Part shown: positions 7,926 to 62,502 of the stretch, piece by piece
Numbering within the stretch: position 1 is the first letter of the stretch
Layout: the number at the start of each line of letters is the position of its first letter
Source: Torpedo marmorata
Lineage: Eukaryota
Direction of reading: 5' to 3'
Assembly: GCA_977017645.1 (NCBI GenBank)
Contig: OZ360257.1
Location: 14,260,001-14,324,000 of the forward strand
DNA length: 64,000 nucleotides
Notes under the pieces: model-generated
Told to the model about the DNA's origin: nothing
Databases searched by the model: none
The model's input: only the letters and a program-made list of their open reading frames with translations
Made by a program: the position numbers and the translations under genes

Positions 7926-9399
7926 CTGTAACTCTGCACTTTTTAGTTGTGTCTCACTCCTTCTTCTATGTATGAGATGCCAACTGGTATGTTGTAAAAA
8001 AAACAAATCAAAAAAACACTCTCATGAGGTCATCGTACATGCGATAACCAACCTGAACTCAAATTTGAAATATTGATTAACCTGGGGAAAATGTGATTCA
8101 TGCAGTACGTCGTTGAACGTTTCATTTAATTGTTTGGACATTTACAATATCCAGTTATCCAGTAGTCGCCTAATTTGCGGATGGCCTCCATTTAGCAGTA
8201 CAGGAGGACACGTCCCGAATTGCCGGTATGGGAATGGTGTGTGTGGTTGGCTTTGTTTGCGGGGCTTACGTTACAGGGAATTATTAATAAAAAGGACGAG
8301 ATTCGACATTGTAAGCGGACGGAGGAACAGGGCCATGATATCTGATTCATTTTGGCTGCGTCATAGGTTTTAAAAACCGTACAAGGGCAATAAATGGATA
8401 TTTTGCCACATTCTTCACCTCATCCCGGAATCTCCTCTGTGTCATTGCATAAACACAAGTGTTTGTACAGCAGCTCAAATACATCAGCAGAATCGCGATT
8501 CTAATTACCAGAAGCAGTGACTTCGGGGCGTCGATCGAAAAGCTTAATGTGAGATGGAAGTATTGGTCAATTATCGTAACCGGTGTCAACAACGCTATGA
8601 AGGTACCAGAAATGGCGAAGAGCAATATAATGGACGTTCTCCGTTTCGTCATCTCGTGATCAAATACCTGACCGTCCCCACGGCTCTTCAAAGCCTTCCG
8701 AGCTCTGCTGACAAGTAAAATGTGTCGGACGGTGAGAGAATTCAACAGCAACATCAGCGGCAGCGGCACCAGTGGTACCATAAGTTTAGACAACCATCTG
8801 TAAGTCTGCCATGCTGGTGAAGAAATATATCGTGTTATAGTACGGCAGCCCCATTGGACATCATCCGCAATGTAATGGGGTTCATACCGGAAATAAGCTG
8901 GAATGTGCATCAAAAAGCTCAGCACACACACAGTCGTAAGAACTACCGTGGCGTTTCTTTAGGTACAATATTTTGTTTTGAATTGCTGGCAACAAATGGC
9001 AATGAAGCGGTCCACTGTGAACGATACCGTGGCCCAGACAGAAAATTGCACGCTGGATTTCTGTATGAAGTCTGTAAGACGACAAGTGGAGGTATGTGCC
9101 AGGAATGAATGAGGAAAATGATAGCCTAAGACGAATATCACTGTAACGTTAAACACACAGACCATTGTGTCTGCAACTGCCATGGTTACCATGTAACGAG
9201 TCACTCCTTTGGAGAGGCCGGACATTCCCCGGGACAGGACCACAATCGAGAGCAGGTTACCTGTAACAAGATGGAAAACCAGGAAATTACCAGAAAAACA
9301 AGCCAACATCTTTAACGTGATTTTTACAATGGAATCTTTGGGAATAACCTAATCGAAACATTTGTATGTTCCTGTAAATTATGCAGTTGCCAACATTAC

Positions 9400-9990
9400 A
9401 TTGGCACTACGGAATGGAAAGAGTAACAACGCTTTCACTACCTCAGAAGCTGAGGAATTTCGGCATGCCCCCGTTGACCCTGTCCGTTGTGTGCAGATGA
9501 ACAATAGAAAGTGTCCGGTACGGGTGCATCACAGATTGGAGTGGAAACTGCTGAGCTCGGAGTCTCAAGAAACCACGGAGTGTAATGAACGCAATTCAGT
9601 GTTATCAATAATCCAATCCCCCGTCCATCGACTTCGTCCATATCTCCCGCCGTCTCCCGGATAAATAATCACTATACATGTTAAAGAATCTGTTCCACCC
9701 CTCCCGCAGTCTCTCCTTCTCCCTGCCGCCGGGCAGAAGAAGCACGAGTTTGGAAGAAACGCACCCAACCAGATTCAAGGGCACTTACATTCCTGCTGGC
9801 AGGCTCTTGAATAGCCCTCTCACGAGGAAAAGGTAATGACTTGCATAGACTAACAGCGCTCCTGTCTTTAACACGTCATGCTGTACTTTATTGTAACACT
9901 ATCACCTGTTCTATTTTTATTCTTGCGCTGCCTGCCGTATTTTATGTGGCTTGATTTTCCTGGATAGCAGGCAAAATAATGCCTTTTCAC
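9400..9990 (+). mobile_element. Rex1/Babar-like LINE 3' fragment in the receptor intron
   Basis: Degenerate match to the PSIDSV..SR..IIKDPSHP..LPSGRR..RTNRFK.SF.PA..RLLN C-terminus. Present in every receptor intron. Confidence 0.6.
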
Positions 9991-10185
9991 TTTTCCCCGG
10001 ACACGTGACCATATACAGTTCAAATCATGGCGTTCAGTTATGGTTGCCTCCTTATAGGAAATATCTGGATGCTGTGGAGAGTGTGCTAAGGTGTTGCCTG
10101 GATTGCAGAATCTATCATATGATGGAAGTGTCTAACTTCAACAACTTCAGGTCAAACGATTTTTAAAATCCTGGCAGAGCGACGA

Positions 10186-10413
10186 NNNNNNNNNNNNNNN
10201 NNNNNNNNNNNNNNNNNNNNNNNNNNNNNNNNNNNNNNNNNNNNNNNNNNNNNNNNNNNNNNNNNNNNNNNNNNNNNNNNNNNNNNNNNNNNNNNNNNNN
10301 NNNNNNNNNNNNNNNNNNNNNNNNNNNNNNNNNNNNNNNNNNNNNNNNNNNNNNNNNNNNNNNNNNNNNNNNNNNNNNNNNNNNNNNNNNNNNNNNNNNN
10401 NNNNNNNNNNNNN
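10186..10413. other. Assembly gap (Ns) at the position of the intronic (TG)n/(CA)n microsatellite
   Basis: Run of n. The homologous position in other units holds TG/CA repeats. Confidence 0.95.
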
Positions 10414-10613
10414 TGATACTCATCCGGAATATGGACTACCAGAAAACCCTCGGCGGAAATCGCAGCAAAATCACTTACCAGGAATGCCGACAATTGCAAG
10501 AATGGGATAGAAGATCTCCGTGGCTTCCATTCGTGGCATCTTTTGAGGATAAGAGCGGTTTCTCCACATCACATGTGAATATGTGAAAAAGAAGAGTTTC
10601 ACTGTGAAGCCTA

Positions 10614-10800
10614 ATTTATAGGACAGCTGTTCTCCTGGGACATTAAATTACATAACACCTCCACATACTCGATTTAACAAAGACTATCAGTTCATTCTAA
10701 GTTAATGACCTGAGATCGCTCCGCCCAGAGTAACTAACACGAGTTATCGTAATAAACAAGGTTCAGGTGCGAGCTCGCTGCATCACCTGCCGTGGAACCG
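10614..10800 (-). promoter_or_regulatory. Putative core promoter of the receptor gene: TATAAAT, GC box GGGCGG, E-boxes
   Basis: TATAAAT at 10614-10620, ~75 nt upstream of the ATG, and GGGCGG at 10721-10726. Both are conserved in all five copies. Confidence 0.5.
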
Positions 10801-11039
10801 TGACACTGCAGTGTCGCGTTCATCTATCTCCATTTGCTTCGCTTTAACCTCGTCCCTGGGGTGACTTGTTCGCGATTCTCTCCGTTGTTTGTTCCCAATG
10901 ATCCTGATTATCACATATATTTTCCTTTTCATTATTATACACCTGAAAATAACTTTGTTCCCATGAGTTTTCAAACGTTCATCAGTCGTCTGACCTGAGG
11001 ATTTGTTTTCACTCGTCGACTGCCATGCTGGACTGACTG

Positions 11040-11280
11040 AAGTTTTATTTAAAATATACAGACACTTAGCTCATGACGCACGTGCTGCCAAATTACATCC
11101 AATGAACATGCCAACTCCATACTTATTTTCGTGAGTGGGAAGAAACCAGAGTACCCGGGGAAACAGAGCAGTTCACGAGGGAGAGCAATAAAACTCCTTC
11201 CAGGGCAGCGCTGTATTTGAACCCGCGACGCTGACGCTGTAAATGCATTCCGCCGAACTGTGACGTGAACCGTCCCGCTT
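11040..11280 (-). mobile_element. Old tRNA-derived SINE (V-SINE-like)
   Basis: Minus-strand 'tacagcgtcagcgtcgcgggttcaaatac..' and 'ccccgggtactctggtttcttcccac'. Copies at ~22900-23120, 37510-37745, 50345-50580 and 63005-63240. Confidence 0.6.
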
Positions 11281-11439
11281 GAAATGCTGGGTTAATTTTT
11301 GTTGCAAACGCCACACAGATCCGAGGAGTGTTTGGATCGCCTGTGGTATTTGGGGTAATGCATCAACGCTGAGGGTTGGTTCGAAGGCATCAAGTCCAAT
11401 CAGAGAATTTCTTTCTGTGCTCTATTTTCTTTGCATTTG

Positions 11440-12322
11440 CTAATCATACAACGGTTCACAGTGTTGTCGGGAGTGCAGAAGGCTGTCGTGGGTTATCACG
11501 GGATATAGACAGGATGCGGAGTTGGGCAGAGAAGTGGCAGATTGAGTTGAATACGGTTAAGTGTAGTGCACTTTGAAGGTCGAATCGAAAGCGGAGTGCG
11601 TGTTAATGGCAGAATTTCTAACAGTTTGGAGGAACTGAGAGATCTTGGGGTCCATGTTAATACACCCCTTAAGGTTGCTGCGCTAGTTGACGCGCTGGTC
11701 AAGAAGGTGTATGGTGGGTTGGCCTTCATTCGTCGGATAAAAGCCGAGAGGAAATGTTGCAGACCCATAAACCTCTGGTGAGACCACACTTGGAATATTA
11801 CGTTCAGTTCTGGTCGCTTTGTTTCTGCACGTATGTAGATGCATTAGAGAGGGTGCAGATATTTATCAGGATATTCTATTGCCTGGATTGGAGACCAAGT
11901 CATGTGGAGCAAGGTTGACAGAGATAGAGAATTTCTCTGTGGATGACAGGTGAATAAACAGAGGTAGATAAGGTTATGAGGCGGCTTCGTAAGTTTGGAC
12001 ATTCAGCACCTGATTCCTGGGGCGACAATCGTTAATCCCGGAGGACAGCTAATTAAGGTGAGTAAAGGAAACTTTAAGGCATATGTGGAAGGTAAGTTTT
12101 TAAACAGATAGTGGTTGGTCCCTCGAAATCATTGCCTGAGGTGGTGGTGGAGGTTGCTACCAGAGGGACATTCCAATGTCTCCACGATAGGAACAGGGTG
12201 TAAGAAAGATATAGCGTTATAGGTGTGCGCTTGGGAAATTATATTGTTGTGGAATGGGTTTACGTAAATTGGCACCACGTCGTGTACTGAAGGGACTGCA
12301 GTGTGTTGTATATTTCATGTTC
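11440..12322 (+). mobile_element. CR1 LINE 3' fragment
   Basis: RDIDRMRSWAEKWQIELNTVKC, EELRDLGVHV and RPHLEY motifs. Confidence 0.85.
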
Positions 12323-12443
12323 TGTGCACCTTCCAGAGACCCAATTTTCATTTGAAGGTTACTTTGTGATCATGCACGTACAGTGATTTTTCTTTACTTT
12401 GTTCGAGGTTATTCATTTTGTTATGTGAGAAAATAAACTGGTG

Positions 12444-13582
12444 TCATTCCTTGCAGTTGTTTGCCTTGGTAAGAAGAGTCACTGGACATTTTACCAGATT
12501 CTTCAGACCCTCTCTGAATTTTCCCTGGGACAGTGCAACAATGAAGTGGTTTTAATGTAGCATAAGGAACGGGAACAGGCACTTCCGGCCCACGAGCCCG
12601 TCCCACCAAAATACCACAATTAATTTTCAACCTCCTTACGTTTTTTATTTGGGACGAAAAAGGAGGGCACGTGCGAAACACACGTAGACATGGGGAGAAC
12701 GTACAAGCTCCTTCCAGTGGCGCCGGAAATGAACCCGGGTCGCTGGCGCTGAAATAGCGCTGTTCTAACCGCTATTGTTAACAGTGGGATTGGGCAAGAA
12801 ATCGAAAACATCAGCATATAACCCGACAATCCCGCAATGGTGAAGGTATCATTGCAGCTTCCTTCCAAAAACTGCGTATCAGTAAATTGCACGCATATGA
12901 AAGCCATCCTGAAGAGAATAACCGTGCTGGAAATGACCAGCAGCAACATTATCAGTTTCCTGCGGTTCCCGATCCCTGCGACACTGCGGTTCCCATTGGT
13001 GTTCTTTCTTCGAAGTTCGCTCCTCGCTCGGTTAGCCAGTATAATGCGGCTGATGGTCAGGGAATGTGGCGCCAAGATAAAGACATAAAGAGTAAATGAG
13101 TTAAAGACTGTTTCCTGCCAGAGAATAACTGCTCAAATTCATAAGGTGTAAAAGCATGATATTACATTGCAGGATAATTCGACTTCATAAATTATTTCAC
13201 GAGATGAGTAAATAAAATGGTGTTTTCTCCAAATGTTGAGGAAAATTCCACCGCACTTTCGCTACGGATGAATTATTTTCAGTGCAATATTTTGCTCGTA
13301 GTGGTTTGTGACAAATATCAAAAAAATCGATCGAACATGAAAGCCACAGTCAGTCACATTGAACCGTCAATGGAAATAAATAACATGGTCAGAATAACTC
13401 TGCAGAGAGAAGTCTGATTGAAGTCTGAATGTGGAAAATACCGATCGTTAATCTCATATAAAATCAATTCATCTACAGTTTCACAACCACTCAGTCAGCT
13501 TCTGCCATGCCCAGCAACCACTGAGTGATGCATTTGGAAAGGCCGTAAATTACATTGAACAGAATGACGATTGGCAGCAAAG
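12444..13582 (-). pseudogene. GPR139-like paralogue B pseudogene, unit 2 copy (SINE in TM7)
   Basis: ORF 12620-13075 reads SLTISRIILANRARSELRRK..GNRRKLIMLLLVISST and is homologous to 783-1915. Confidence 0.85.
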
Positions 13583-13591
13583 TTGTTTCAA

Positions 13592-14980
13592 AACATAGAA
13601 CGTAGAACATGGAACATGACAGCACAGTACAGGCTATTCGGCCTTCAATGTTGTGCCGATCTGTATATTCCTACCAAGAAAATACTGAAACCTTCCAACC
13701 TCTTAATCCTCTAATTTTCGTTCATCCATGTGCCTGTCTACGAGTCTCTTAAATACCCAAAATGTTTCAGCCCCCACCACCAACCTGGCAAGGCATTGCC
13801 GGCACCTCCATCTCTGTGTGAATAATTTACCTCTGATATCTCCCCTCATCATTCCTCCCTTCACTTTGTGCATACGTCCCCTGGTGTTTGCCATTCCTTC
13901 CCTGCGAAAAAGGCGCTTGCTGTCTACCCTATCTATTGTAGATATTCTTGTAGACTTTGATTAAGTCACCTCTCATCCTTCTTCGCTCCAAACAAAAAAG
14001 TCCTTGCTCTTCTAACCTTGCCTCGGAAGACATTTTCCAATCCAGGCAATACACTGGTAAATCTCCTCCGCACCCTCTCCACAGTTTCCACATCCTTACT
14101 ATAACGATGTGGCCATAACTGAATAAAATACTATAAGTATGGTCTAACCAGAGGTGTGTAGAGTTGCAACATGACCTCTACACTATTGAACGCAATCCCC
14201 CTATTATTGAAACCCAGCATCCCTTGGCCTTCTTAACTATCCTATCAACCTGCGCGGAAACATTGAGAGATCTATGGATTTGAACTTCCAGCTCCCTCTG
14301 TTCCTCCACACTCTTACGTATCCGACCATTAATGCTGTATTCAGCAAGGTTTGACCTTCCAAAATGCTTCACAAACTTATCCGGATTGAGGTCGATCCGC
14401 CACTGTTGCGCCCATCTCTGCATTTCAATCTACGACAAATTTCAACACTAACTGCAGCTCCTCCAACATTTACATCATCTGCAAACCTACTGACACACCC
14501 TTCCGCTCTTCATCTCGGTCATTTATAAAAAGCACAAAGAGCAGGGGTTCTAGAATATATCCCTGCGGAACTCCACTAGTCACGGATGTTCAGACAAAAT
14601 ACTTTCTGTTCCGTCCTCTGCTTTCTACAGACAAGCCAATTTTTTATCCACACAGCCAAGATTCCGTGGATAGAATGCCTGATTTATTTCTGACCGAGTC
14701 TTTCATGGGGAACCTTGTCAAACGCCTCACTGAAATCCATATGTACCTGCTCTACCGTCACACTTTCCTATTTATATTTTGTTATCTCCTCAGAAAATGC
14801 AATGTGGCTCATGAGGCACGACCATCCCCTCACAAAGCCATGTTGATGTCCCTCAGACGACTGTAACTCTCCAAATGCTCATAAATACTGTCCTTAAGAA
14901 TCCTCTCCAATAGTTTGCACACCACTGACGTAAGACTCACCTGTCTGTAATTCTTAGGATTTTCTCTATTACCCTTTTTA
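13592..14980 (-). mobile_element. CR1 LINE RT fragment
   Basis: Copy of 1925-3310, with WAQQWRIDLNPDK and EEQRELEVQIH motifs. Confidence 0.88.
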
Positions 14981-15290
14981 GAGATTTAGATTAATAATGT
15001 TCTCTGATCTGAAGGCAGAACAGCAGACACTTCGTGATTTGCTGCAATTATATTATTATTGAACCACGTTTCTCTGGTAGTTTTAAGAGAGTGGCATTAG
15101 CGCGATGAGACTGCATGTTTGCTCTACTTAGACTTGTGCGCATTTACTTTAATAACGTTGATGTCATATGGGAGCCGAGATCAGATCCATCTCTCCTGAA
15201 AAGAAGGTCAAACCTCACCTTGCTGAGCTGAACTTCAAGCATGGCCCTGAGGAAAATTATCGTCCCGAAAACTCCACTATCGCTGCCACC

Positions 15291-15527
15291 NNNNNNNNNN
15301 NNNNNNNNNNNNNNNNNNNNNNNNNNNNNNNNNNNNNNNNNNNNNNNNNNNNNNNNNNNNNNNNNNNNNNNNNNNNNNNNNNNNNNNNNNNNNNNNNNNN
15401 NNNNNNNNNNNNNNNNNNNNNNNNNNNNNNNNNNNNNNNNNNNNNNNNNNNNNNNNNNNNNNNNNNNNNNNNNNNNNNNNNNNNNNNNNNNNNNNNNNNN
15501 NNNNNNNNNNNNNNNNNNNNNNNNNNN
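15291..15527. other. Assembly gap (Ns) at a (CA)n microsatellite
   Basis: Run of n between flanks that match those of the CA repeat at 3627-3703. Confidence 0.95.
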
Positions 15528-17393
15528 CGCTGAGTGCCCCCAATTGTTTCACGTTTTGGCAGTGTGGAAGAAAGGTTTCCACACGCAAAGGAAAACCTCC
15601 ATTCGGGCGGGGGTGGGGGGCGTTTAAAAGTGCTTCGCTGTAAGTACATGGGGAGGGTTAAAGGCACGATCTTCACTCAGAGAGTAATTGGTGCATGGGA
15701 TTCACTGCTGGCAACTGTTTTAGAGGCAGGTACATTAGGATATTTTAAGAGACTAGTATATTTGCACATGTAACAGAGTGAAAATGAGCGTTATACAGGA
15801 CGGAAATTCTCGGAATTCCTGGAAGCGGAGATTATCAGGTTGGCATAACACTGTGGCCCAAATGGCCTATACCACGTTGAAGATTTCTATATTCTATATT
15901 CAATTTTCCATCATGAACTATTACCTTCTGTTACGAGGCAAATATTGAATAGAAATTTCCAAATTGCCTTTGATCCCTTCATCTGTGGACCAGTGCATTA
16001 TTTCGACATACAACACCGTAACAGGCCTTTCTGGCCCTCGGTCTGTGCCGCTCATATAACCCAATAAAGCTACGTTTTGAAAGGTTTGAGGAAACCGGAT
16101 CGCCCGGAGGAAACCCACGCAGACACATGGAGAACGGACAAACTCCTCACAGACAGGGGCCGGGTTCGAACCCGAGACACTGGCCCTGTAAATGTGTTGC
16201 ACCTACCGCTCCGCTAACCGTGCAAGCTCATTATCTGCAAATTTGACAGGGTCGTACCGAAATTCGTGTCACCTTCAGCAACTGCAGTACTCTCATCGAT
16301 ATATTGAGCTGTTCTTCGAAACAAACACAAAATTTGTTGTATATAATCTGCCAACAAAAAAGCTATGCTAACTCTCCTTAATCAATCCCCTTCTCTCCAA
16401 CTGCGGATTCATCCTGGACATCAGAATTATTTTCAATTTTCTTTCCAAATGCTCTTCCTATTGTTGCCTTTGATTTAAGGTATTTCTTTCAAGATCTCTC
16501 TGCACATTATACTTGGTGGAAGTTAAAAATCAGACGACGAAACATGCCCAATTCCTCCAAATATATATGGATAATTTTCGTTCCTAGGATGGTATTGCAG
16601 CCTGGTTTGGATCGAGATCTATAACTGCCTGGAGCACTGGGAAGCTCCATGTAGCTGCTGCTTGTACTTGGAACACCCAGGATGCTCCGATCCTGCTGTC
16701 TCAACTCCTTTAGCTGGAGGTAATTCGAGGAAACAAAAGCAACCAGACTCTTTCTTAAATTTAACGTGAGCGGCGGAAAATCTCTTTCAAATAAAGCAAC
16801 GTAGCGCACATACCTTCCTTGTATTGGATCGGCATGCGGGGATCTTTTCTGAGTGGTTGACTTACATTGAAAATTATTTCGCCACGTGCAAAGCTAAACC
16901 ATTAGCTATTTTCCATTAATTCCCTCAATTTTATGTCACCACATTTTGATGCAGTATATTAAAAATCGAAATGCAACACGAACACTTGGGAATTGTTTCT
17001 ATCAATTTGGGAAATTACGTCAGCAAAAGCAACGCGTTTATTCAATGGACAAGAGCATTGCGCCGGTTGGAGAAGCTGTGCATTAAAATGTATTATATAT
17101 ATGACGTAAATATATATTATTTGTCTGTATGTGTGTTATGTCTGGTTGTATGTCTGCATGCTTTGCACCTACACCAGAGAACGCTGTTTCTTCGGGTTGT
17201 ACTTGTACAATCAGATGACAAAAAACTTGACTTGAAAACTCGAGTAAGAAAAAAAGCTTTAAGCAGATGTTACATGGCTTACGATGTACACGAACTATTC
17301 TAAGAATAGGATTGTTATTTTTTTCGTTATCTAAAATTACTGGTCGCTCCATGATTGGAGATATGAAATGCAGTTGCGCCATTTAGTTTAATG

Positions 17394-17764
17394 CAGTGGT
17401 TTTCAAACTTTTTCTTCACACTCACACACCACATTAAGTAATCCCTATGTCATAGTTGCTCTGTGATTAGTGAGGGATTATATAAGGTGGTATGTGAGTG
17501 GAAATAATAAGTTTGAAAACCACTGTTTTAATCGTACCTCGTTGACTCTCGTGAACGGTTTAATAACTCCAATGGAAATGGGCCAATGACAATTTTTATT
17601 AAGCAAAATATTTCAGTAACAATTAGGTCTCGAGCAGTGGTTCTCAAACTTTTTCCCCCACTCACATACCAACTTAAGCAACCCTTACTAATCACAGATC
17701 TCCTATGGCACAGGGATTACTTAAGGTGGTATGTGAGTGGAAAGAAAAAGTTTGAAAACCACTG
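17394..17764. mobile_element. hAT-like double-palindrome MITE
   Basis: Termini CAGTGGTTTTCAAAC / GTTTGAAAACCACTG, with a near-perfect 8-bp TSD gtttaatg/gcttaatg. Confidence 0.82.
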
Positions 17765-19631
17765 GCTTAATGGAATTCACAGCAATGCCTGACTTATAAA
17801 TAAAGTATGCCTGACACATAATGACACATGAACACAAAATGATTGTCATTAGTCGCAGATTTTCATTGGAGCAAATAGATTAAATCAAGTCATAACTGCT
17901 GATGTCGATCAGGAAAACGAATAATTCCAAACAAAATATATCCACATCGCATTATTATAGTGGCGATGTGTATTTATAGATTCGTGAAACAACCAACAAA
18001 CCCTGGAACTTGTGATGATTTGACTGTTCCTTAGTATTGTTTAAATTCACGCGGTTGGAATCTTGAAAAATACTATATCATTTTGCCTTTGGGTTGGAAA
18101 CATAATTGTTCTGAAATTCACACAAAAATCAGATCCAATAATTCGGATGAAAAATAGCAAATTGAAATTGATTTTCCGAATTTTCCTACAAATTGTTCAT
18201 GTTTAGATTGACCCACATATGATTATGGAGCCAAGTGGAAGCAGCACAAGTTTCAAGTATTAACCTGTTCCGTTTTTGCTGATTCAGGAACAGTTATGCT
18301 GGATTGGAGAGTTCTGCTCGTCATCCCACTGTTCATAGTGATGTTTAAGGAAATTAGAACTCATTGTCTGGAATTCCTCTGTTGAGCATACGTCCGGGGT
18401 AATAACATAGATCATCACCGAATACGAGAGAGACAACGTCATAAAGGTAATTGAGTCAAGAGCAGCACCCAACAGAAACAGTGGCTTCCTTACTGATGTG
18501 TTTGGAGAATTATATCTGACTTCACCGCATCCCCGAGAAGAGCAAATCAAATATTAAACGTGATGAAGGGTTCAGACCCGAAACGTCGATGTTTCTTTTC
18601 TCCACGAATGATTCTCGACCTACTGAGTTCCTCCAGCATATTTCTTTGCTTCAAATGCCTGTTTAAAAACACAGCTCTCAGATCCCCCTCAAAATTCACC
18701 TTAAACTCGTGTCCACTTACTTTTGTTTACCCTGGCATTAGAAATAGATTTTGAACATCTTCCCTATCGGTGACTCTCATCATCTTACTTATATTTCCCA
18801 GCTCATTCCTAAACCTGCTGTGCTCCATGGAAAATAGGCCCCTTCCTATTAAGCACCTTCCACAGCTCGTCCTCCTTTCCAGGCAACATCCTGGTGAATT
18901 TCCACTGCAACAACTCCGGTCCAATCACATAAATAGTGTGGCGGCCAGAACTGCAAACAACACTTCAAGTACAGTCTGAACAGTGTTTGTGAAATTCGAG
19001 ATCCTGTTTATTATCCTCGAACAAGGAAGGCACCATCACCCTAACAAACGTGTTTCTGCTTTCAGGCAACTATGAATTCAGACCCCCATGTCCCTCTGTT
19101 CATCACGTTTCCTTCCTGATGGATTCTTCCTCGCTCCCCCTCTCTCTCCATTTCGCTCTCTCTCTCTCTCCATTTCGTTATCTCTCTCGTACTCTCACTT
19201 TCTCTCCTTCTCTGTAACTCTGCACTTTTTAGTTGTGTCTCACTCCTTCTTCTATGTATGAGATGCCAACTGGTATGTTGTAAAAAAAACAAATCAAAAA
19301 ACACTCTCATGAGGTCATCGTACATGCGACAACCAACCTGAACTCAAATTTGAAATATTGATTAACCTGGGAAAAATGTGATTCATGCAGTACGTCGTTG
19401 AACGTTTCATTTAATTGTTTGGACATTTACAATATCCAGTTATCCAGTAGTCGCCTAATTTGCGGATGGCCTCCATTTAGCAGTACAGGAGGACACGTCC
19501 CGAATTGCTGGTGTGGGAATGGTGTGTGTGGTTGGCTTTGTTTACGGGGCTTACGTTACAGGGAATTATAAAGAAAAAGGACGAGATTCGACATTGGAAG
19601 CGGACGGAGGAACAGGGCCATGATCTCTGAT

Positions 19632-22229: not shown

Positions 22230-22267
<38 letters not shown>

Positions 22268-22383: not shown

Positions 22384-22466
22384 TCGTGGTATCTTTTGAG
22401 GATAAAAGCGTTTTCTCCACAGCACATATGAATATGTGAAAACGAAGAGTTTCACTGTGAAGCCTA

Positions 22467-26450: not shown

Positions 26451-26457
26451 AGTTTCA

Positions 26458-40464: not shown

Positions 40465-40505
<41 letters not shown>

Positions 40506-49606: not shown

Positions 49607-49681
<75 letters not shown>

Positions 49682-49841: not shown

Positions 49842-51026
49842 CGTTTGAGGATAATGCGGTTTCTCTACAGCACAGGTGAATATGTGAAAACGAAGAGTTT
49901 CACTGTGAAGCCTAATTTATAGGACAGCCGTTCTCCTGGGACACTAACTTGCATAACACCTCCACATACTCGATTTAACAAAGACTATCAGTTCATTCTA
50001 ACTTAATGACCTGAGATCACTCCGCCCAGAGTAACTAACACTAGTTATTGTAATAAACAAGGTTCAGGTGCGAGCTCGCTGCATCACCTGACGTGGAACC
50101 GTGACACTGGAGTGTCGCGTTCATCTATCTCCATTTGCTTCGCTTTAACCTCGTCCCTGGGGTACGTGTTCGCAATTCTCTCCTTTGTTTGTTCCCAATG
50201 ATCCTGATTATCACACATATTTTCCTTTTTATCATTATACACCTGAAAATAACTTTATTCCAATGAGTTTTCAAAAGTTCATCAGTCGGTCTGACCAGAT
50301 GGTTTGTTTTCACACGTCGACTGCCATGCTAGCTTGACTGAAGATTTATTTAAAATATACAGACACTTAGCGCATGACGCCCGTGCTGCCAAATTACATC
50401 CAATGAACATGCCAATTCCATACTTTTTTTCGTGAGTGGGAAGAAACCAGAGTACCCTGGGAAACCGAGCAGTTCACGAGGGAAAGCAATAAAACTCCTT
50501 CCAGGGCAGCGCTGTATTTGAACCCGCGTCGCTGACGCTGTGAATGTGTTGCGCTGAACTGTGACGTGAACCGTCCCCCTTGAAATCCTGATTTAATTTT
50601 TGTTGCAAACGCCACACAGATCCGAGGAGTGTTTGGATCGCCTGTGGTGTTTGGGGTAATGCATCAACGCTGAGGGTTGGTTCGAAGGCATCAAGTCCAA
50701 TCAGAGAATTTCTTTCTGTGCTCTATTTTCTTTGCATTTGCTAATGATACAACGGTTCACAGTGTTGTCGGGAGTGCAGAAGGCTGTCGTGGGTTATAAC
50801 GGGATATAGACAGGATGCGGAGTTGGGCAGAGGAGTGGCAAATTGAGTTCAATACGGTAAAGTGTAGTGCACTTTGGAGGCCGAATCGAAGGCGGAGTGC
50901 GTGTTAATGACAGTATTTCTTACAGTTTGGAGGAACTGAGAGATCTTGGGGTCCATGTTAATACACCCCTCAAGGTTGCTGCGCGAGTTGACGCGCTGGT
51001 AAAGAGGGTGTATGGTGGGTTGGCCT

Positions 51027-51588
51027 CCTCGCTCGGATAGCCAGTATAATGCGGCTGATGGTCAGGGAATGTGGCGCCAAGATAAAGACATAAAGAGCAA
51101 ATGAGTTAAAGACTTTTTACTGCCAGAGAATAACTGCTCAAATTCATAAGGTGTAAAAGCATGATATTACATTGCAGGATAATTCAACGTTATCAATTAC
51201 TTCCCGAGGTTAATAAATAAAATGGTGTTTTTTGCCAAATGTTGAGGAAAATTCCACCGCGCTTTCGCTACAGATGAATTATTTTCAGTGCAATATTTTG
51301 CTTGTAGCGTTTGGTGACAAATAGCAAAAAATCGATCGAACATGAAAGCCACAGTTAGTCACATTGAACCGTCAATGGAAATAAATAACATGGTCAGAAT
51401 AACTCTACAGAGAGAAGTCTGATTGAAGTGTGAATGTGGAAAATACCGATCGTTAATCTCATATAAATTCAATTCATATACAGTTTCACAACTTCTCAGT
51501 CAGCTTCTGCCATTCCCAGCAACCACTGAGTGATGCATTTTGAGAGGCCGTAAATTACATGGAACAGAATGACGTTTGGCAGCAAAGT
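51027..51588 (-). pseudogene. Paralogue B pseudogene, 3'-deleted
   Basis: Same fusion junction as at 38191. Confidence 0.8.
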
Positions 51589-51595
51589 AGTTTCA

Positions 51596-52983
51596 AAACA
51601 TATAACATAGAACATGGAACATGACAGCACAGTACAGGCTATTCGGCCTTCAATGTTGTGCCGATCTGTATATTCCTACCAAGAAAATACTGAAACCTTC
51701 CAAACTTTTAATCCTCTAATTTTCGTTCATCCACGTGCCTGTCTACGAGTCTCTTAAATACCCAAAGTGATTCAGCCCCCACCACCAACCTGGCAAAGCA
51801 TTGCCGGCTCCTCCATCTATTTGTGAATAATTTACCTCTGATATCTCCCCTCAACCTTCCTCCCTTCACTTTGTGCAAACGTCCCCTGGTGTTTGCTATT
51901 CCCTCCCTGCGAAAAGGCGCTTGCTGTCTTCCCTATCTACTGTCTATATTCTTGTAGACTTTGATTAAGTCACCTCTCATCCTTCTTCACTCTAAACAAA
52001 AAAGTCCCTGCTCTACTAACCTTGCCTCGGAAGACATTTTCCAATCCAGGCAATACACTGGTAAATCTCCTCCGCACCCTCCCCACAGTTTCCACATCCT
52101 TCCTATAACGATGTGGCCATAACTGAATACAATACTATAAGTATGGTCTAACCAGAGGTGTGTAGAGTTGCAACATGACATCTATACTATTGAACTCAAT
52201 CTCCCTATTATTGAAACCCAGCATCCCTAGGCCTTCTTAACTATCCTATCAACCTGCGCGGAAACATTGAGAGATCTATGGATTTTAACTTCAAGGTACC
52301 TCTGTTCCTCCACACTCCTAAGTATCCGACCATTAATGCTGTATTCATCAAGGTTTGACCTTCCAGAATGCTTCACAAACTTATCCGGATTGAAGTCGAT
52401 CTGCCACTTTTGCGCTCATCTCTGCATTGTAATCTACGACAAACTTCAACACTAACTGCAGCTCCTCCAACCATTATATCATCTGCAAACCTACTGACAC
52501 ACCCTTCCGCTCTTCATCTCGGTCATTAATAAAATGCACAAAGAGCAGGGGTTCTAGAAAAAATCCTTGCGGAACTCCACTGGTCACTGACTTCCAGACA
52601 GAATACTTTCTGTGCCGTCCTCTGCTTTCTACAGGCAAGCCAATTTTTTATCCACACAGCTGAGATTCCGTGGATAGAATGCCTGATGTCTTTCTGACCG
52701 AGTCTTTCATGGGGAACCTTGTCAAACGCCTTACTGAAATCCATATGTACCTTGTCTAAAGCACATTTTTCTCAATATATTTTGTTATCTCCTCAGAAAA
52801 TGCAAAGAGGCTCATGAAGCACGACCATCCCCTCACAAAGCCATGCTTATGTCTCTCAGACGACTGTACTTCTCCAAATGCTCATAAATCGTGTCCTAAA
52901 GAATCCTCTCCCATAGTTTTCACACCAGTGACGTAAGCCTCACCTGTCGGTTATTCTCAGGATACTCTCTATTACCCTTTTTA
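51596..52983 (-). mobile_element. CR1 LINE RT fragment
   Basis: MDFSKAFDKVPHERL motif. Confidence 0.9.
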
Positions 52984-53297
52984 GAGATTGAGATTAATAA
53001 TGTTCTCTGATCTGAAGGCAGAACAGCAGACACTTCGTGATTTGCTGCAATTATATTATTATTGAACCACGTTTCTCTGGTAGTTTTAAGAGTGTGGCAT
53101 AAGCGCGATGAGACTTCATGTTTGCTCTACTTAGACTTGTGCGCATTTACTTTAATAACGTTGATGTCATATGGAAGCCGAGATCAGATCCATCTCTTCT
53201 GAAAAGAGGGTCAAACTTGACCTTACTGAGCTGAACTTCAAGCATGGCCCTGAGGCAAAGTATCGTCCCGAAAACTCCACTATCGCTGCCACCCGCC

Positions 53298-53344
<47 letters not shown>

Positions 53345-55314
53345 AAACACACACAAAACACAAACACACACATACAGAAACACAAACACAAACACACACA
53401 AAACATAAACACATACATACAGAAACACACACACACACACGCTGTTCAATCCGCTGAGTCCCCCCAATAGTTTGACTTTCTGGCACTGTGGAAGAAAGGT
53501 TTCCACACGCAAAGGAAAACCTCCATTCAGCCGGGGTGGGGGGGGCGTTTAAAAGTGCTTCGGATAAGTAGATGGGGAGGGTTAGAGGCACAATCTTCAC
53601 ACAGAGAGTAATGGGTGCATGGAATTCACTGCTGGCAACTGTTTTAGAGGCAGGTGCAATAGGATATCTTTAGAGACGAGCATATTGGTGCATGGAACAG
53701 AGAGAAAATGAGCGTTATACAGGACGGAAATTCTCGGAATTCTTGGAAGCGGAGATTATCAGGTTGGCATAAAACTATGGCTCAAATGGCCTATACTACG
53801 TTGAAGATTTCTATATTCTATATTCAATATTCCATCATGAACTATTACCTTCTGTTACGAGGCAAACATTGAATCCGAATTTCCAAATTGCCTTTGATCC
53901 CTTGAACTGTGGACCAGTGCATTATTTAGACATACAGCACTGTAACAGGCCTTTCTGGCCCACAGTCTGTGCCGCTCAAATAACCCAATAAAGATACGTT
54001 TTAAAGGGTGGGAGGAAACCGGATCACCCGGAGGAAACCCACGCAAACACATGGAGAACGAACAAACTCCTCACAGACAGGGCCGGGTTCGAACCCGGGA
54101 CACTGGCCCTGTAAATGTGTTGCACTAACCGCTACGCTAACCGTGCAAGCCCATTGTCTGGATATTTGACAGGGTCGTACCGAAATTCGTGTCAACTTCA
54201 TGAACTGCAGTACTCTCATCGATACATTGAGCTGTTCCTCGAAACAAACATAAAATTGGTTGTATATAATCTGCCAACAACAAAGCTATGCTATCTCCCC
54301 TTAATCAATCCCCTTCTCTCCAACTGCGGATTCATCCTGGAACTCGGAATTATTTTCAATTTTCTTTGCAAATGCTGTTCTTGTTGTTACCTTTGATTTA
54401 TAGTATTTCTTTCATGATCTTGTTGCACATTATACTTGGTGGAAGTTAAAAATCAGACGACGAATAATGCCCAATTCCTCCAAATAATTATGGATCATTT
54501 TCGTTGCTAGGATGGTATTGCAGCCTGGTTTTGTTCGAGATCTACAACTGTCTGGAGAACTGGGAAGCTCCATGTAGCTGCTGCTTGTACTTGGAACACA
54601 CAGGCTGCTCTGATCCTGCTGTCTCAAATCCTTTAGCTGGAGGTAATTCGAGGAAACAAAAGCCACCAGACTGTTTCTTGAATTTAACGTGAGCGGCGGA
54701 AAATCTCTTTGAAATAAAGCAATGTAGCGCACATACCTTCCTTATATTGGATCGGCATGCGGGGATCTTTTCTGAGTGGTTGACTTCCATTAAAAATTAT
54801 TTCGCCACGTGCAGAGCTAAACCATTAGCTATTTTCCATTAATTCCCTCAATTTTATGTCACCACATTTTGATGCAGTATATTAAAAATCGAAATGCAAC
54901 ACGAATACTTGGGAGTTGTTTCTATAAATTTGGGAACTTACGTCAGCAAAAGCAACGCGTTTATTCAATGGACAAGAGCATTGCGCCGGTTGGAGAAGCT
55001 GTGCCTTAAAATGTATTATATGTATGACGTAAATATGTATTATTTGTCTGTATGTGTGTTATGTCTGGTTGTATGTCTGCATGTTTTGCACCTACACCAG
55101 AGAACGCAGTTTCTTCGGGTTGTACTTGTACAATCAGATGACAAAAAACTTGACTTGAAAACTCGAGTATGAAAAGAAGTTTTAGCAGATGTTACATGGC
55201 TTACGATGTACACCAAGTATTCTAAGAATAGGATTGTTATTTTTTTCGTTCTCTAAAATTACTGTTCGCTCCATGATTGGACAGATTAGATGCAGTTGCG
55301 CCATTAGTTTAATG

Positions 55315-55688
55315 CAGAGGTTTTCAAACTTTTTCTTCACACTCACACACCACATTAAGTTATCCCTTTGCCATAGTTGCTCTGTGATTAGTAAGGGATT
55401 ATTTAAGGTGGTATGTGAGTGGAAATAAAAAGTTTCAAAACCACTGTTTTAATCATACCTCGTTGACTCGTTATGTGCACGGCTTCATCACTCCAAAGGA
55501 AATGGGCCAATGACAATTTTTATTAAGCAAAATATTTCAGTAACAATTAGGTCTGGAGCAGTGGTTCTCAATCTTTTTTCCCCACTCACATACCAATTTA
55601 AGTAACCCTTACTAATCACAGAGCACCGATGCCACAGTGATTATTTAAGGTGGTATGTTAGTGGAAAGAAAAAGTTTGAAAACCACTG
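55315..55688. mobile_element. hAT-like double-palindrome MITE
   Basis: Copy of 5579-5952. Confidence 0.78.
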
Positions 55689-58600
55689 GCTTCATGGAAT
55701 TCACAGCAATGCCTGACTTATAAATAAAGTAAACCTGACACATAATGACACATGAACACGAAATTATTGTCATTAGTCGCAGATTTTCATTGGAGCAAAC
55801 AGATTAAATAAAGTCATAACTGCTGATGTCGATCAGGAAGACGAATCATTCCAAACAAAATATATCCACATCGCATTATTATAGTGACGATGTGTATTTA
55901 TAGATTCGTGAAGGAACCAACAAACCCGAGACCTTGTGATGATTTGCCTGTTCCTTAGTATTGTTTAAATTCACACTGTTGGAATCTTAAAAAGTACTAT
56001 ATCATTTTGCCTTTGGGTTAGAAATATAATTGTTCTGAAATCCACACAAAAATCAGATCAAATAATTCGGATGAAAAATAGCAAATTGAAATTGATTTTC
56101 CGAATTCTCCCACAAATTGTTCACATTATTTCTTTGGGCTTCTTAAATTTGTCAACAGCTATCGACGTTTGTGCCAATAAATTGGCGATTTAACTTGCAT
56201 AACAACGTAGAACTACTGCAAATAATATTTTCAGCATTATGAACCCTGCCTTTGGAAGGGAAAATCTTGAAAATCAGAATTTGTGTCTTATTCTTTTTCA
56301 AAATAACTTACTCGATCTTCTTCGCTGAGCGGCACAGTTAGCGTAGCGGTTATGCAACCCTGTTACAGCGCCAGCGATTGGGACTGGGGATCGAATCCCA
56401 CGCTGACTGTGAGGAGTTTTTACGTTCTCCCCGTGTCTGCGTGGGTTTTCCCAACGGACTCCGGTTTGCTCCCACCCTTCAAACGTACTGGGTGTATAGG
56501 TCAATTGGGTGTGATTAGGTGGCATGGGCTTGTGGACCGAAAGTGGTTGTTATCGTGCTGTACGTCTACATTAAAAAATAATCATCTAAATTTAAATTTA
56601 AAAGTTAAAGCATGCTACTTAGATATTGTCGGTCGTTCTCACAGTGTAGGTGATCAGCACCTGCATTATGCATGTGCTTGCAGCCAACGCGATGGCGCCG
56701 TGTGGAAGGAGCACGGTGTTCAGTACTTCCGTTACCGGGCATTGAGGGGCCGGGACCGGAGGGGAAGCCTCAATCACCAGTTGGGGGAGCATCGGCCAGG
56801 TGGCAAACGTGCTTAAAAGAGAACGACTTTAACAATGTAGAGTGATGCCTATCTATGGATATGACACAAATGCCGCGATAAGACTGAAGGGTTTTATTTT
56901 ATAAATTATTTTATTGGTAATAATGTTTAGTTTTGATAAAAGTATTTGAAAATTCCACAGAGCGCCCATTGGTTCGTTCAAATGTATGGCGTACCGCTCA
57001 ATGGCGACTTTGCTCGATTTAAAAAAAACCTTGTCAGTTTTGCAGTTAGATAAAAGATAAATGAAAACATCCCTGGATATTAGTGCAATACACAATAGTG
57101 CTGGAGTAATTCAGGATGTATATATCTTTCCTTCCAATGGACGTTGCATGAGATGCTGAGTTTATTCTGTACCTTTGTGTATTGCACTGCAATCACAGCA
57201 TCGGCAGAATTATGTAGAATTCCCTGCGTATTAATTGTGATGCAAGACTCAGCAGAGTTCTAATTTTAACATGATACCTCAAGTATCAGACCGGCTTTCA
57301 AAGCCTTAGACTGACATGACTGATATAGAAACAGCGCTTGTCCACGAGACATAGCACTACTCCGAAGGGTTCCAATGCCCGGTCCTAATGCCGGCTGACA
57401 CGTACAGGATTTAAAATGGACGATAAAGGGTCCGACTGTATTTGTAAGTAAAATCATGTACCCTCGGGGTCTGTCACCAAGACAGTGACGCCTCGGCTCG
57501 GCAGCGGCCACGACGAGTTTCGGACCCCGGGAGAGTAGGAAGTTAGAAACCGTACCCGAGGGAAGCCCTTTCAGGCTCTACTGTTCTATGTTCTGTATTG
57601 TTATGTAATGGGAGTGTCGGAAGATATTCACAGGTGATACCAAATTGAACAAGGGTTCCAGATATTGGCAAGGCGATCTTAGGACTCAAAGGACTGTAAA
57701 CATTGATTATATCGGCTGAATAATTTCACTTTTCGATATTGACGGCCGGGATACGTATCGGCTCACCTCACCACTCAAACCAACAGCGTTTGGACCAGAG
57801 ATGATCAATAAAAGGCCGATGTGCTCAATCATGTTAAGATTGAACACACATATGATTATGGAGCCTAGTGGAAGCAGCACAAGTTTCAAGTATTAACTTG
57901 TTAGGTTTTTGCTGATTCAGGAACTGTTATGCTGGAATGGAGATTTCTGCTCGTCCTCCCACAGTTCATAGTGACGGTTAAGGAAATTAGAACCCATTGA
58001 TGGGAATTCAGCTGTTGAGCAGACGTCCGGGGTAATAAAATAGATCATCACCGAATACGTGAGAGACAACTTCATAAAGGTAATTGAGTCAAGTGCAGCA
58101 CCCAACAGAAATAGTGGCTTCCTTACTGATGTGTTTGGAGAATTATATCTGACTTCACCGCATCCCCGAGAAGAGCAAATCAGATATTAAACGTGATGAA
58201 GGTTTCTGACCCGAAACGTCGATGTATCGTATCTCCACGAATGATGCTCGACCTACTGAGTTCCTCCAGCATATTTCTTTGCTTCATATGCCTGTTTAAA
58301 AAGACAATCTCCTAGATTCCCCTTAAAACTCACCTTAAACTCGTGTCCACTTACTTTTGTTAACCCTGGCATTAGAAATAGGTTTTGAACATCTTCCCTA
58401 TCGGTGACTCTCATCATCTTACTTATATTTCCCAGCTCGTTCCTAAACCCGCTGTGCTCCAGGGAAAATTGGCCCCTTCCTATTAAGCACCTTCCACAGC
58501 TCGTCCTCCTTTCCAGGCAACATCCTGGTGAATTTTCTGCAACAACGCCGGTCCAATCACATAAATAGTGTGGCGACCAGAACTGCAAACTATACTTCAA

Positions 58601-59758
58601 GTACAGTCTGAACAGTGTTTGTGAAATTCGAGATCCTATATATTATCCTCGAACTAGGAAGGCACCATCACCCTAAAAAACGTGTTGCTGCTTTCAGGCA
58701 ACTATGAATTCAGACCCCCATGTCCCTCTGTTCATCACGTGTCCTTCCTGATGGAACATTTAGTGCATATGCCGTGCATTATTTGCAGTTGTCAGTATAA
58801 AATTGCAGCTGGCAACGCACAGCCCAAGTTTTCACCTGATCTATATCCTGCCGAAATTGAAGATTCAATTTTATTTTATTGTTATGCTATAATACAGAAC
58901 ATTAAATATGACACGACCTGTGTTTGGGATACTTCCTTTTTAAAAATTGAATAAGAAAAGAATTTGCAAATGCTTGACCCGATGACGTTCGATTCTGCTC
59001 TCCAGCGGAATTCCCTTAAAAGATCTGGCACAGACGACCAGGCCTGCTGAGAAATCTCTGCGTTTTCTGTATTTGTCCCAAGATAGTGAAATTATGTCTC
59101 CTTTGTTCAGTACCAACTGAACTCTCTCTCTATCTCTCCCTCTCCCCTCTCTCTGTCTCTGTCTGTCTGACTCTCTCTCGATCTCTAACACACTCTCTCT
59201 CTCTCTGTCTCTCTCTCTCTCGCTGAATCACTCTCCCACTCTCTCTGTCTCTCTCTCTCGCTCCCTCTCTCTCTCCATTTCGCTCTCTCTCTCTCTCCAT
59301 TTCGTTATCTCTCTCGTACTCTCACTTTATCTACTTCTCTGTAACTCTGCACTTTTTAGTTGCGTCTCACTCCTTCTTCGATGTATGAGATGCCAACTGG
59401 TATGTTGTAAAAAAATCAAATCAAAAAACACTCTCGTGAGGTCTTCGTACATGCAACAAAAAACCTGAATTCAAATTTGAAATATTGATTAACCTGGGCA
59501 AAATGTGATTCATGCAGTACGTCGTTGAACGTTTCATTCAATTGTTTGGACATTTACAATGGCCAGATATCCAGTAGTCGCCTAATTTGCGGATGGCCTC
59601 CATTTAGCAGTACAGGAGGACACGTCCCGAAATGTTGGTGTGGGAATGGTGTGTGTGGTTGGCTTTTTTTACGGGGCTTATGTTACAGGGAATTATTAAT
59701 AAAAAGGACGAGATTCGACATTGGAAGCGAACTGAGGAACAGGGCCATGATCTCTGAT

Positions 59759-62265
59759 TCATTGTGGCTGCGTCATTGGTTTTAAAAACCGTACAAGGGC
59801 AATAAATGGATGTTTTGCCACCTTCTTCACCTCCTCCCGGAATCTCCTCTGTGTCATTGCATAAACACAAGTGTTTGTACAGCAGCTCAAATACATCAGC
59901 AGAATCGCGATTCTAATTGCCAGAAGCAGTGACTTCGGGGCGTCGATGGAAAAACTTGAGGTGAGATGGAAGTATTGGTCAATTATCGTAACCGGTGTCC
60001 ACAACGCTATGAAGGTACCAGAAATGGCGAAGAGCAATATAATGGACGTTCTCCGTTTCGTCATCTCGTGATCAAATACCTGACCGTCCCCACGGCTCTT
60101 CAAAGCCTTCCGAGCTCTGCTGACAAGTAAAATGTGTCGGACGGTGAGAGAATTCAACAGCAACATCAGCAGCAGCGGCACCAGTGGTACCATAAGTTTA
60201 GACAACCATCTGTAAGTCTGCCATGCTGGTGAAGAAATATATCGTGTTATAGTACGGCAGCCCCATTGGACATCACCCGCAATGTAATGGGGTTGATACC
60301 GGAAATAAGCTGGAATGTGCATCAAAAAGCTCAGCACACACACAGTCGTAAGAACTACCGTGGCGTTTATTTCGGTACAATATTTTGTTTTGAATTGCTG
60401 GCAACAAATGGCAATGAAGCGGTCCACTGTGAACGATACCGTGGCCCAGACAGAAAATTGCACGCTGGATTTCTGTATGAAGTCTGTAAGACGACAAGTG
60501 GAGGTATGTGCCAGGAATGAATGAGGAAAATGATAGCCTAAGACGAATATCACTGTAACGTTAAACACACAGACCATTGTGTCTGCAACTGCCATGGTTA
60601 CCATGTAACGAGTCACTCCTTTGGAGAGGCCGCGCATTCCCCGTGACAGGACCACAATCGAGAGCAGGTTACCTGTAACAAGATGGAAAACCAGGAAATT
60701 ACCAGAAAAACAAGTCAACATCTTTAACGTGATTTTTACAATGGAATCTTTGGGAATAACCTAATCGAAACATTTGTCTGTTCCTGTAAATTATGCAGTT
60801 GCCAACATTACATTGGCACTACAGAATGGAAAGAGCAACAACGCTTTCACTACCTCAGAAGCTGAGGAATTTCGGCATGCCCCCGTTGACCCTGTCCGTT
60901 GTGTGCAGATGAACAATAGAAAGTGTCCGGTACGGGTGCATCACAGATTGGAGTGGAAACTGCTGAGCTCGGAGTCTCAAGAAACCACGGAGAGTAATGA
61001 ACGCAATTCAGTGTTATCAATAATCCAATCCCCCGTCCATCGACTTCGTCCATATCTCCCGCCGTCTCCCGGATAAATAATCCCTGCCGCCGGGCAGAAG
61101 AAGCACGAGTTTGGAAGAATAGCACCCAACCAGATTCAAGGGCACATGCATTCCTGCTGGCAGGCTGTTGAATAGACCTCTCATGAGTAAAAGGTAATGA
61201 CTTGCATAGCTTAACAGCACTCCTGTCTTTAGCACGTCATGTTGTACTTTATTGTAACACTATCATCTGTACTATTTCTATCCTTGCGCTGCCTGCTGTA
61301 TTTTATATGGCTTGATTTGCCTGGATAGCAGGCAAAATAACGCCTTTTCACTTTTCCCCGGATACGTGACGATAAACAGTTCAAATCTATGCGTTCAGTT
61401 ATGGTTGCCTCCTTATAGGAAATATATGGATGCTCTGGAGAGTGTGCAAAGGTGTTGCCTGGATTGCAGAACCTATCATATGAAGGAAGGTCGACAGAGC
61501 TAGGGCTTTTCTCTGCAGCGATGAAGGGGAAGAGGTGAATTATTGGGGGTAGACAACATCATGAGGGGTTTAGATGTGGTGAACAGCAAACAACAACATG
61601 CTGTATCATGAAGGAACGTAGGCATTCCTTATGTTGTTGTCGCAAAGTTCAAATGAGTTGGTGTCTCTGGTACAGCAGGTTACGTGCTGGTGATATTTGC
61701 GCAGGGCTTTCTTAAGACAGGCCTGATGAAAGTCAACGACTGTGACTGGAAGTGTCTCGGGGTGGGCCTGTTTACTGACCAGGTCATGCAGCTCCGCAAG
61801 TGCCCGTTTGTAATTGGTGTCGGGAAGGAGATAAACTCGGGTGAGAATAACTGATGAGAAACCTCGGGGAACATTGAAGAGTTTTCATTTGATCGATATC
61901 TGCTCTCCGCCACTGGAGGAAGATTTCGATAGAACACCAACGTCCGTGCACCATCCGATATTAACAGGAAAGCAAACACTGTGCCCTGTCACTTTGCCAG
62001 AATCCATGTCCCAGTCCAGCCTGTGAATGGTTAAAACCTCTGGTCGGATCACAGCGTTATTTGTGTTTTCTGTTAGCCAGGATTCGCAGCAGCAAACAAC
62101 TGAGATTTGTCTCAACTGTCTCTGATATAGCAGCATTGCCCAGAGGTCTTCGGTTTTATTTTTTAGTGACTGGACATTGTCTAACTTCAACAACCTCAGG
62201 TCAAAAGATTCTTTAAATACTGGCAGAGCGACGACGGCTGAACAACTTTCTGTGAGTGTATGTGT

Positions 62266-62342
<77 letters not shown>

Positions 62343-62502
62343 TGTATACCTTTATATACATACGCACGCACAAACGGGATACTCATCCGTAATACGGACA
62401 ACCAGAAAACACTCGGCGGAGATCGCAGCAAAATCACTTACCAGGAATGCCGACAATTGCAATAATGTGATAGAAGATATCCGTGGCTTTCATTCGTGGC
62501 AT
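59759..62502 (-). CDS. GPR139/GPR142-like class A orphan GPCR, copy A5 (intact, ~324 aa); join of exons 62442-62502 and 59759-60672
   Basis: Same structure as A3/A4. The translation is identical to A4. Confidence 0.9.

Follow-up and report, generated by a model that had tools for sequence, protein, structure and literature searches.

A recently amplified tandem array of GPR139-related orphan receptor genes in Torpedo marmorata, part of a large receptor family of sharks and rays

Receptor genes and tandem units of the window

The OR, TAAR, V1R/ORA, T2R, FPR, and MRGPR repertoires are organised in tandem clusters with lineage-specific birth and death, contain pseudogenes, and encode receptors with a short N-terminus and a variable ligand pocket. 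Here, 64,000 nucleotides of the Torpedo marmorata genome (assembly GCA_977017645.1, contig OZ360257.1, positions 14,260,001 to 14,324,000; this whole stretch is henceforth called the window) were analysed, and found to be a single local array, amplified recently, that belongs to a large orphan rhodopsin-class receptor family in sharks and rays; this family has the features of these repertoires in common with them but a separate origin. Its closest characterised receptor is GPR139, as judged against the Protein Data Bank (PDB), which covers only receptors with solved structures. GPR139 is a two-exon gene whose zebrafish and human proteins are 70% identical, and its tryptophan/phenylalanine site comprises E108, F109, H187, W241, R244, and N271 (passages of PMC7318219). 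Near GPR139 and GPR142, three sets of orphan receptors from coelacanth and fishes, two of them termed GPR210A/B, were described by Rinne et al. 2019, with no sharks in the sections concerned (PMC6504862). The nematode srw chemoreceptors are an expanded, peptide-receptor-derived class A branch, and GPR139 is unmentioned in the relevant passages of that source (PMC3963977). No vertebrate group is known to have a smaller olfactory receptor repertoire than the cartilaginous fishes, with a mean of 43.8 genes (PMC10869828), and these fishes are described as poor in G protein-coupled receptors (GPCRs) (PMC8455134).

Head-to-tail units of 11–15 kb, about 91–99% alike, spanned the window completely (positions 1..64000; self-BLAST and unit alignment) and overran both of its ends. 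Within every unit there is one minus-strand receptor gene (A1 to A5), together with a relic of another receptor paralogue (B) and repeat fragments, and the stop-to-stop spacings of the A copies are 11285, 14636, 12832, and 12659 bp. Units 3–5 mutually differ by only 0.6–1.3%. In 10582 aligned columns, 95, 26, and 40 substitutions were private to units 3, 4, and 5, respectively, in addition to indels, so that at least two true paralogues are present and these units are recent but distinct copies; one of them could nevertheless be an allelic haplotype mis-assembled in tandem (a false duplication). The array would have grown by unequal crossing-over of the whole unit, with the dead paralogue carried along, and sequence may also have been exchanged between copies by conversion. 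Of the “actively amplifying” cluster proposed in the initial annotation, only recent amplification is shown.

In all five A copies, an exon 1 of 61 nt is separated by a phase-1 intron, with canonical GT..AG borders, from an exon 2 of 914 nt, and the spliced frame comprises 324 codons. Exon 1 was found with a hidden Markov model (HMM) trained on the N-terminal sequences of 48 of 120 listed homologues, which returned five candidates (E 8e-7 to 6e-5; next match E 3.8) located about 1.8 kb upstream of exon 2 (1.2 kb for A1, where a gap intervenes). A gene model without an intron, beginning at a methionine upstream of exon 2, was rejected, as a polypyrimidine tract and a splice acceptor lie there; two Narcine database models seem to carry mis-called starts of this intronless type. 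In A5, exon 1 (62442..62502, minus strand, as all exons below) holds the ATG, the short N-terminus, and the first half of transmembrane helix (TM) 1 (N-terminal HMM E 6e-5, canonical donor), and the intact exon 2 (59759..60672; Pfam 7tm_1 E 7.7e-23) runs from mid-TM1 to the stop. A4 (exon 1, 49781..49841, by N-terminal HMM and splice sites; intact exon 2, 47100..48013) encodes the same protein as A5, and the A3 protein (exon 1, 36945..37005, by N-terminal HMM and splice sites; intact exon 2, 34268..35181, by Pfam) is three residues away from it. The A2 protein (open exon 2, 19632..20545) is 88% identical to that of A5 over its whole length, with the differences clustered from TM2 through extracellular loop (ECL) 1 to TM3; codon 1 of its exon 1 (22332..22392) is ATA and Met4 is in frame, so the copy counts as intact only when translation begins at Met4. 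A1 (exon 1, 10479..10539; exon 2, 8347..9260; its intron crosses an N gap) is a pseudogene with TAA at codon 121 (8959–8961) and a mosaic, which agrees with A2 at 6 of 9 informative sites as far as nt 100 and with A5 at 45 of 49 between nt 122 and nt 877. The four open frames (A2–A5) hence encode two protein types. The initial annotation had recognised the five same-strand copies and the nonsense copy and had counted four as intact, which applies to A3–A5 outright and to A2 only from Met4; its limits, 8347 and 62502, coincide with the stop codon of A1 and the ATG of A5.

The encoded seven-transmembrane protein of about 324 residues carries the TM3 and ECL2 cysteines, matched Pfam 7tm_1 in all three A copies tested (E 1e-19 to 8e-23, well outside chance), and was modelled by AlphaFold with seven helices at a predicted local distance difference test (pLDDT) score of 89. 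The very short N-terminus (about 10 residues before TM1), DRF, N5.58, and NTxxY, all previously annotated, were confirmed in each of the five copies. TATAAA occurs 80–81 nt upstream of all five starts against a background of 0.375 per kb, the candidate core promoter of A5 being at 62577..62582 (minus strand, 80 nt upstream of the ATG); since the copies share ancestry, the five boxes count as a single observation. AATAAA follows each A stop at 620–910 nt. At the top of TM2, codons 62, 65, 66, and 67 of A2 encode the residues of the Narcine protein P0001, and codon 67 of A5 that of other Narcine paralogues, a pattern that may stem from the exchange of old variants among copies or from convergence.

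Relation to GPR139 and the family in sharks and rays

Human GPR139 was the best PDB match of the window protein (E 1.9e-12, 50.5 bits), with the PrRP receptor close behind (47.8 bits). With a profile of 57 family sequences, GPR139 reached 90.8 bits vs 63.2 bits for the next receptor, and it was also the best fold match of the AlphaFold model, at 23% identity. The window genes resemble human GPR139 (PDB 7VUG/9M42) in their two-exon structure (a feature of GPR139 given in PMC7318219), in N5.58, and in the lack of proline at 7.50; they differ in having Cys3.25, which is absent from GPR139 in the alignment, and in occurring in many copies rather than one. At the six pocket places of GPR139, A5 aligns with Q, K, S, W, V, and I, i.e., only W6.48 is kept. 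Given 23% identity, compared with about 70% between orthologues, and one of six pocket residues, orthology to GPR139 and a ligand carried over from it (L-Trp/L-Phe) were both rejected: the genes are related to GPR139 without being its orthologues, and its aromatic amino-acid ligand should not be assigned to them. Of the earlier “GPR139/GPR142-like” assignment, what holds is GPR139 as the nearest characterised receptor by sequence, profile, and fold, the genes themselves forming a separate paralogue group; the suggested sensing of aromatic amino acids is unsupported.

The homologue search returned 595 of 1919 candidates at E ≤ 1e-3. Among the best 120 of these 595 matches, 119 had elasmobranch names (20 species) and one had no name; no holocephalan name occurred among these 120. 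The nearest named protein among the matches listed was from the electric ray Narcine bancroftii (79%), and the best 120 included 28 rows from Heterodontus (on 11 different scaffolds) and 23 from Heptranchias, which are lower bounds, as each row is a 90%-identity cluster. At least 28 distinct members from one shark change the GPCR count of cartilaginous fishes, whatever the tissue of expression. A library clustered at 50% identity yielded 89 proteins at E ≤ 1e-30, and 121 of 124 representatives examined, many of them fragments, had their best named match in the expanded clade. One database model of the family, P0120, has LINE (long interspersed nuclear element) sequence fused at its N-terminus.

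A FastTree phylogeny of 155 rows, restricted to named proteins and leaving out 13 of the 120 listed homologues, contained subclades specific to single species in Mustelus, Heptranchias, Pristiophorus, Narcine, and carpet sharks. In an IQ-TREE phylogeny of 57 of these rows, the expanded clade, in which every named member is a shark or a ray, was recovered with support of 95/90, two further clades, S and T, with 100/100 each, and all three together with 97/95; the branching order among the three was not settled, and two invertebrate rows formed long branches. The closest relatives beyond elasmobranchs are the conserved clades S (amphibians and sturgeon) and T (sharks, bony fishes, coelacanth, amphibians, and reptiles), which apparently contain one gene per species, and sharks keep their own clade T gene beside the expanded family. 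Both resemble the expanded clade in their short N-terminus, in the start of TM1, and in having GPR139 as best match (for one S and two T members), but differ from it in being apparently single-copy, in their conserved pockets, and in being only about 29–32% identical to the window protein. They are possibly the GPR210A/B orphans; the Ensembl identifiers of the coelacanth and fish proteins so named were not found in the supplement of PMC6504862, and the clade of the window is separate from S and T. The clade S gene (P0213, P0437–P0456) has N2.50 instead of D and a strongly conserved pocket, and it encodes an orphan receptor whose ligand is probably fixed. No mammal or bird occurred in clade T (P0223, P0290–P0407) among the 120 matches listed, and the annotation of two clade T gene models as TMEM183A isoforms suggests that the T gene adjoins or sits within TMEM183A.

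Throughout the family, species-specific clusters with pseudogenes and mosaic copies were found, and self-BLAST, homologue search, and tree together revealed multigene tandem clusters with lineage-specific gain and loss; the genomic pattern is of a known kind, that of a birth-and-death GPCR repertoire. Of the lineage-specific family of the initial annotation, a large birth-and-death family with elasmobranchs as its named members and an unconserved pocket is upheld, and the expansion is to be widened from this lineage alone to sharks and rays. The class A features (7tm_1, seven helices, N1.50, D2.50, R3.50, P5.50, and Y7.53) were recovered (57 of 57 members), and none of the 57 matched an olfactory, vomeronasal, or taste Pfam model. 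TAARs, which have no Pfam model apart from 7tm_1, were absent from the listed PDB matches. Pfam 7TM_GPCR_Srw matched two of the 57 relatives and not the window protein; given this weak likeness in Pfam and features to nematode srw, any likeness in role would be convergent. As judged from these comparisons, the family lies outside all described vertebrate chemoreceptor families.

RefSeq already labels many members “probable GPR139”. Literature on GPR139, GPR142, and GPR210 in connection with sharks or phylogeny, mostly from outside subscription journals, contained no account of the expansion. In the parts searched of the supplements of PMC8455134, PMC10115646, and PMC12318234, no GPR139 rows were found, and one line in that of PMC8455134 names the human GPR142 orthogroup. 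No mention of GPR139 was found in passages of the text of PMC11979771, a catshark atlas, nor in passages of the main text of a survey of batoid tandem clusters (bioRxiv 10.1101/2025.06.08.657570).

Ligand pocket and candidate functions

In 123 members, the activation motifs (N1.50, D2.50, DRF, P5.50, N5.58, F6.44, and NTxxY) were near-invariant, each being kept in 89–100%. At 23 positions that we take to line the pocket, under a numbering scheme likewise assumed by us, the entropy averaged 2.53 bits vs 1.40 bits at 155 other TM sites (p 2e-7; 123 members). A stricter, tree-aware control compared the median rates of pocket positions with those of 36 non-pocket sites in the extracellular helix halves. 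Under this control, the pocket was slower than its surroundings in clade S (0.14 vs 0.49, p 0.0007; 23 sequences) and in clade T (0.31 vs 0.70, p 0.007; 53 sequences); the pocket conservation of these single-copy sisters is lost in the expanded family. A conserved core, an unconserved pocket, and gene turnover fit a diversified ligand-sensing repertoire, sensory or immune. We therefore lean towards the reading that the family works as a receptor repertoire. Individual members would be tuned to distinct water-soluble ligands, as in the OR, TAAR, FPR, and MRGPR repertoires, and all would signal through one common G-protein route, the ligand class, coupling, and cell type being likewise presumed. 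Within the window, A2 differs from A3–A5 at pocket positions 2.64, 3.29, and 3.33, and its sequence suggests that its specificity probably differs as well. The pocket of A3–A5 is polar and net basic (K3.33, R5.39, K5.43, and R7.36 vs D3.29 and D6.55, with TM5 and TM7 numbered by sequence offset and possibly off by one), which suggests an anionic or zwitterionic small molecule or a peptide rather than Trp/Phe. The window copies depart from the family at 6–7 of 81 conserved columns, which is within the range of the family (median 4.9%, upper quartile 8.6%).

Several results weigh against a ligand-sensing repertoire, besides the uncertainty in TM5 and TM7 numbering. Under the strict control, the pocket of the whole family was not significantly faster than the control sites (1.22 vs 0.97, p 0.066), nor was that of its 50 closest members (0.91 vs 0.88, p 0.80), and positive selection on the family pocket was not demonstrated by site rates. 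Both trees were computed without true GPR139 or GPR142 sequences. In A3–A5, two conserved sites have changed (C34R and P222H). Between A2 and A5, 44 nonsynonymous and 19 synonymous differences were counted, which corresponds to an omega (nonsynonymous-to-synonymous rate ratio) of 0.7–0.8, indistinguishable from neutrality (p 0.22; p 0.47), and the coding divergence of 6.5% equals that of the flanks (6.7%). Positive selection on the local copies was hence shown neither by the A2/A5 omega tests nor by site rates. The near-neutral amino-acid change of the local copies weakens an adaptive reading of the window array, whose growth may be drift.

It is accordingly possible, though less probable than the repertoire reading, that this array arose by neutral segmental amplification under relaxed selection, as perhaps did many of the recently added copies, with haplotype mis-assembly as a potential contributor and with whatever function exists residing in older members. 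Such an origin would agree with an omega of about 0.8 that does not differ from 1, with the identity of the A4 and A5 proteins, with one dead copy in five and another lacking its first ATG, with the equal amplification of the dead paralogue B, and with the two N gaps in the array. Against it stand the private substitutions and indels of units 3–5 with their implication of true paralogues, the long frames kept by subfamily members in Narcine and Rhinoraja, and the absence of any stop or frameshift between A2 and A5 where about 4.4 would be expected (P about 0.012), a test that is biased in that intact copies were chosen. Moreover, 18 of the 63 A2–A5 differences are concentrated in 95 nt at TM2-ECL1-TM3 (p 0.0004), a clustering that may be due to selection or, less favourably for a functional reading, to a conversion tract. 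The open frame and the clustered differences argue against pure decay. Neutral growth of the window array is compatible with a repertoire at the family level; by itself, with its two protein types and near-neutral local evolution, the window is a well-resolved example and little beyond.

Under the repertoire reading, an immune or barrier family, acting in leukocytes, gut, gill, skin, or somatosensory neurons on peptides and metabolites derived from microbes or damage, much as MRGPR and FPR do, is a tentative option. The birth-and-death signature speaks for it as well, peptides would fit the polar, basic pocket, cartilaginous fishes reportedly lack MAS1-related receptors (PMC8455134), and GPR142, a relative, functions in gut and pancreas (PMC7318219), but the best structural relatives are not chemoattractant receptors. 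An immune family may correspond, in elasmobranchs, to MRGPR/FPR sensing.

An external chemosensory family, expressed sparsely in sensory cells of the nose, taste buds, or skin, is about as doubtful, if marginally more so. Its genes behave in the genome like those of olfactory families, and the likeness in features, with the Srw matches above, extends to a nematode Srw-type cluster; furthermore, the 43.8 genes on average are complete olfactory receptor genes and contrast with many olfactory neurons (PMC10869828). Conversely, catshark olfactory neurons are described as microvillous, positive for Go and TRPC2, and dominated by V2Rs, with most class A olfactory genes silent in them (PMC10116579). 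No GPCR appears among the top 50 abundant, specific genes of a catshark brain-plus-olfactory library in the list given in PMC11979771, which omits V2Rs too and thus says little on this point. If olfactory, the family would be a new vertebrate chemoreceptor family and would help explain the mismatch between many neurons and few receptors. A still bolder version, which we regard as rather unlikely, is that the GPR139/peptide-receptor branch gave rise, independently in sharks and rays, to an additional chemoreceptor family, with tens of genes per genome or more, i.e., comparable to the known olfactory repertoire, sparsely expressed in olfactory or other chemosensory cells and missed because of “probable GPR139” labels; the window would then be a snapshot of its turnover.

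Receptors for one or a few neuropeptides or hormones of endogenous origin, whose copies would serve dosage or regulatory subfunction, are improbable, even though the invertebrate relatives of GPR139 are MIP/sex-peptide, proctolin, and FMRFamide receptors (PMC12208981) and the conserved pockets of clades S and T imply fixed ligands, because a common ligand predicts a conserved pocket and the family pocket positions carry about 2–3 bits of entropy each.

Relic paralogue, repeats, and assembly features

The six relics noted in the initial annotation were recovered by tblastn on the minus strand and belong to another subfamily of the receptor family. B1 (786..1970) is a dead exon 2 with an insertion in TM7, and B2 (12456..13649) and B3 (25304..26517) carry the same lesions. 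B4 (38188..38819; tblastn and self-BLAST) lost its 3′ part in a deletion common to B4–B6, B5 (51024..51655) is truncated, and B6 (63685..64000) is truncated and additionally cut by the window edge. Stops and a deletion are held in common by the relics, the TM7 insertion by the three full ones, and they are 87–99% identical. Six independent gene deaths are ruled out by these common lesions, which indicate one gene death copied six times with the unit.

The deletion that shortened B4–B6 corresponds to 1.3 kb of the interval between units 1 and 2 that are absent from units 3–5 (11739–13020 vs 63686–63700), and its junction shows microhomology of only about 2 bp. N gaps were present at 10186–10413 and 15291–15527 (units 1–2), both where other units carry (CA)n microsatellites. 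The Rfam scan of the 64 kb gave no matches. Decayed LINE reverse-transcriptase fragments, copied with the unit, lie on the minus strand at 2908–3210, 27385–27744, 39834–39926, and 52670–52762, the match of the first to Pfam RVT_1 being weak (E 0.004). An open frame of 191 codons (24147–24722, minus strand), present in a single unit and without a Pfam match, has a presumed likeness to the C terminus of ORF2 from an L1/Tx1-type retrotransposon. Each unit also contains one element of about 380 bp resembling a miniature inverted-repeat transposable element, with inverted ends of about 135 bp that are 72–79% alike (5573–5952, 17388–17771, 29814–30193, 42473–42852, and 55309–55688; self-BLAST). A local duplication of about 175–195 bp (44220–44589) was found in unit 4 only.

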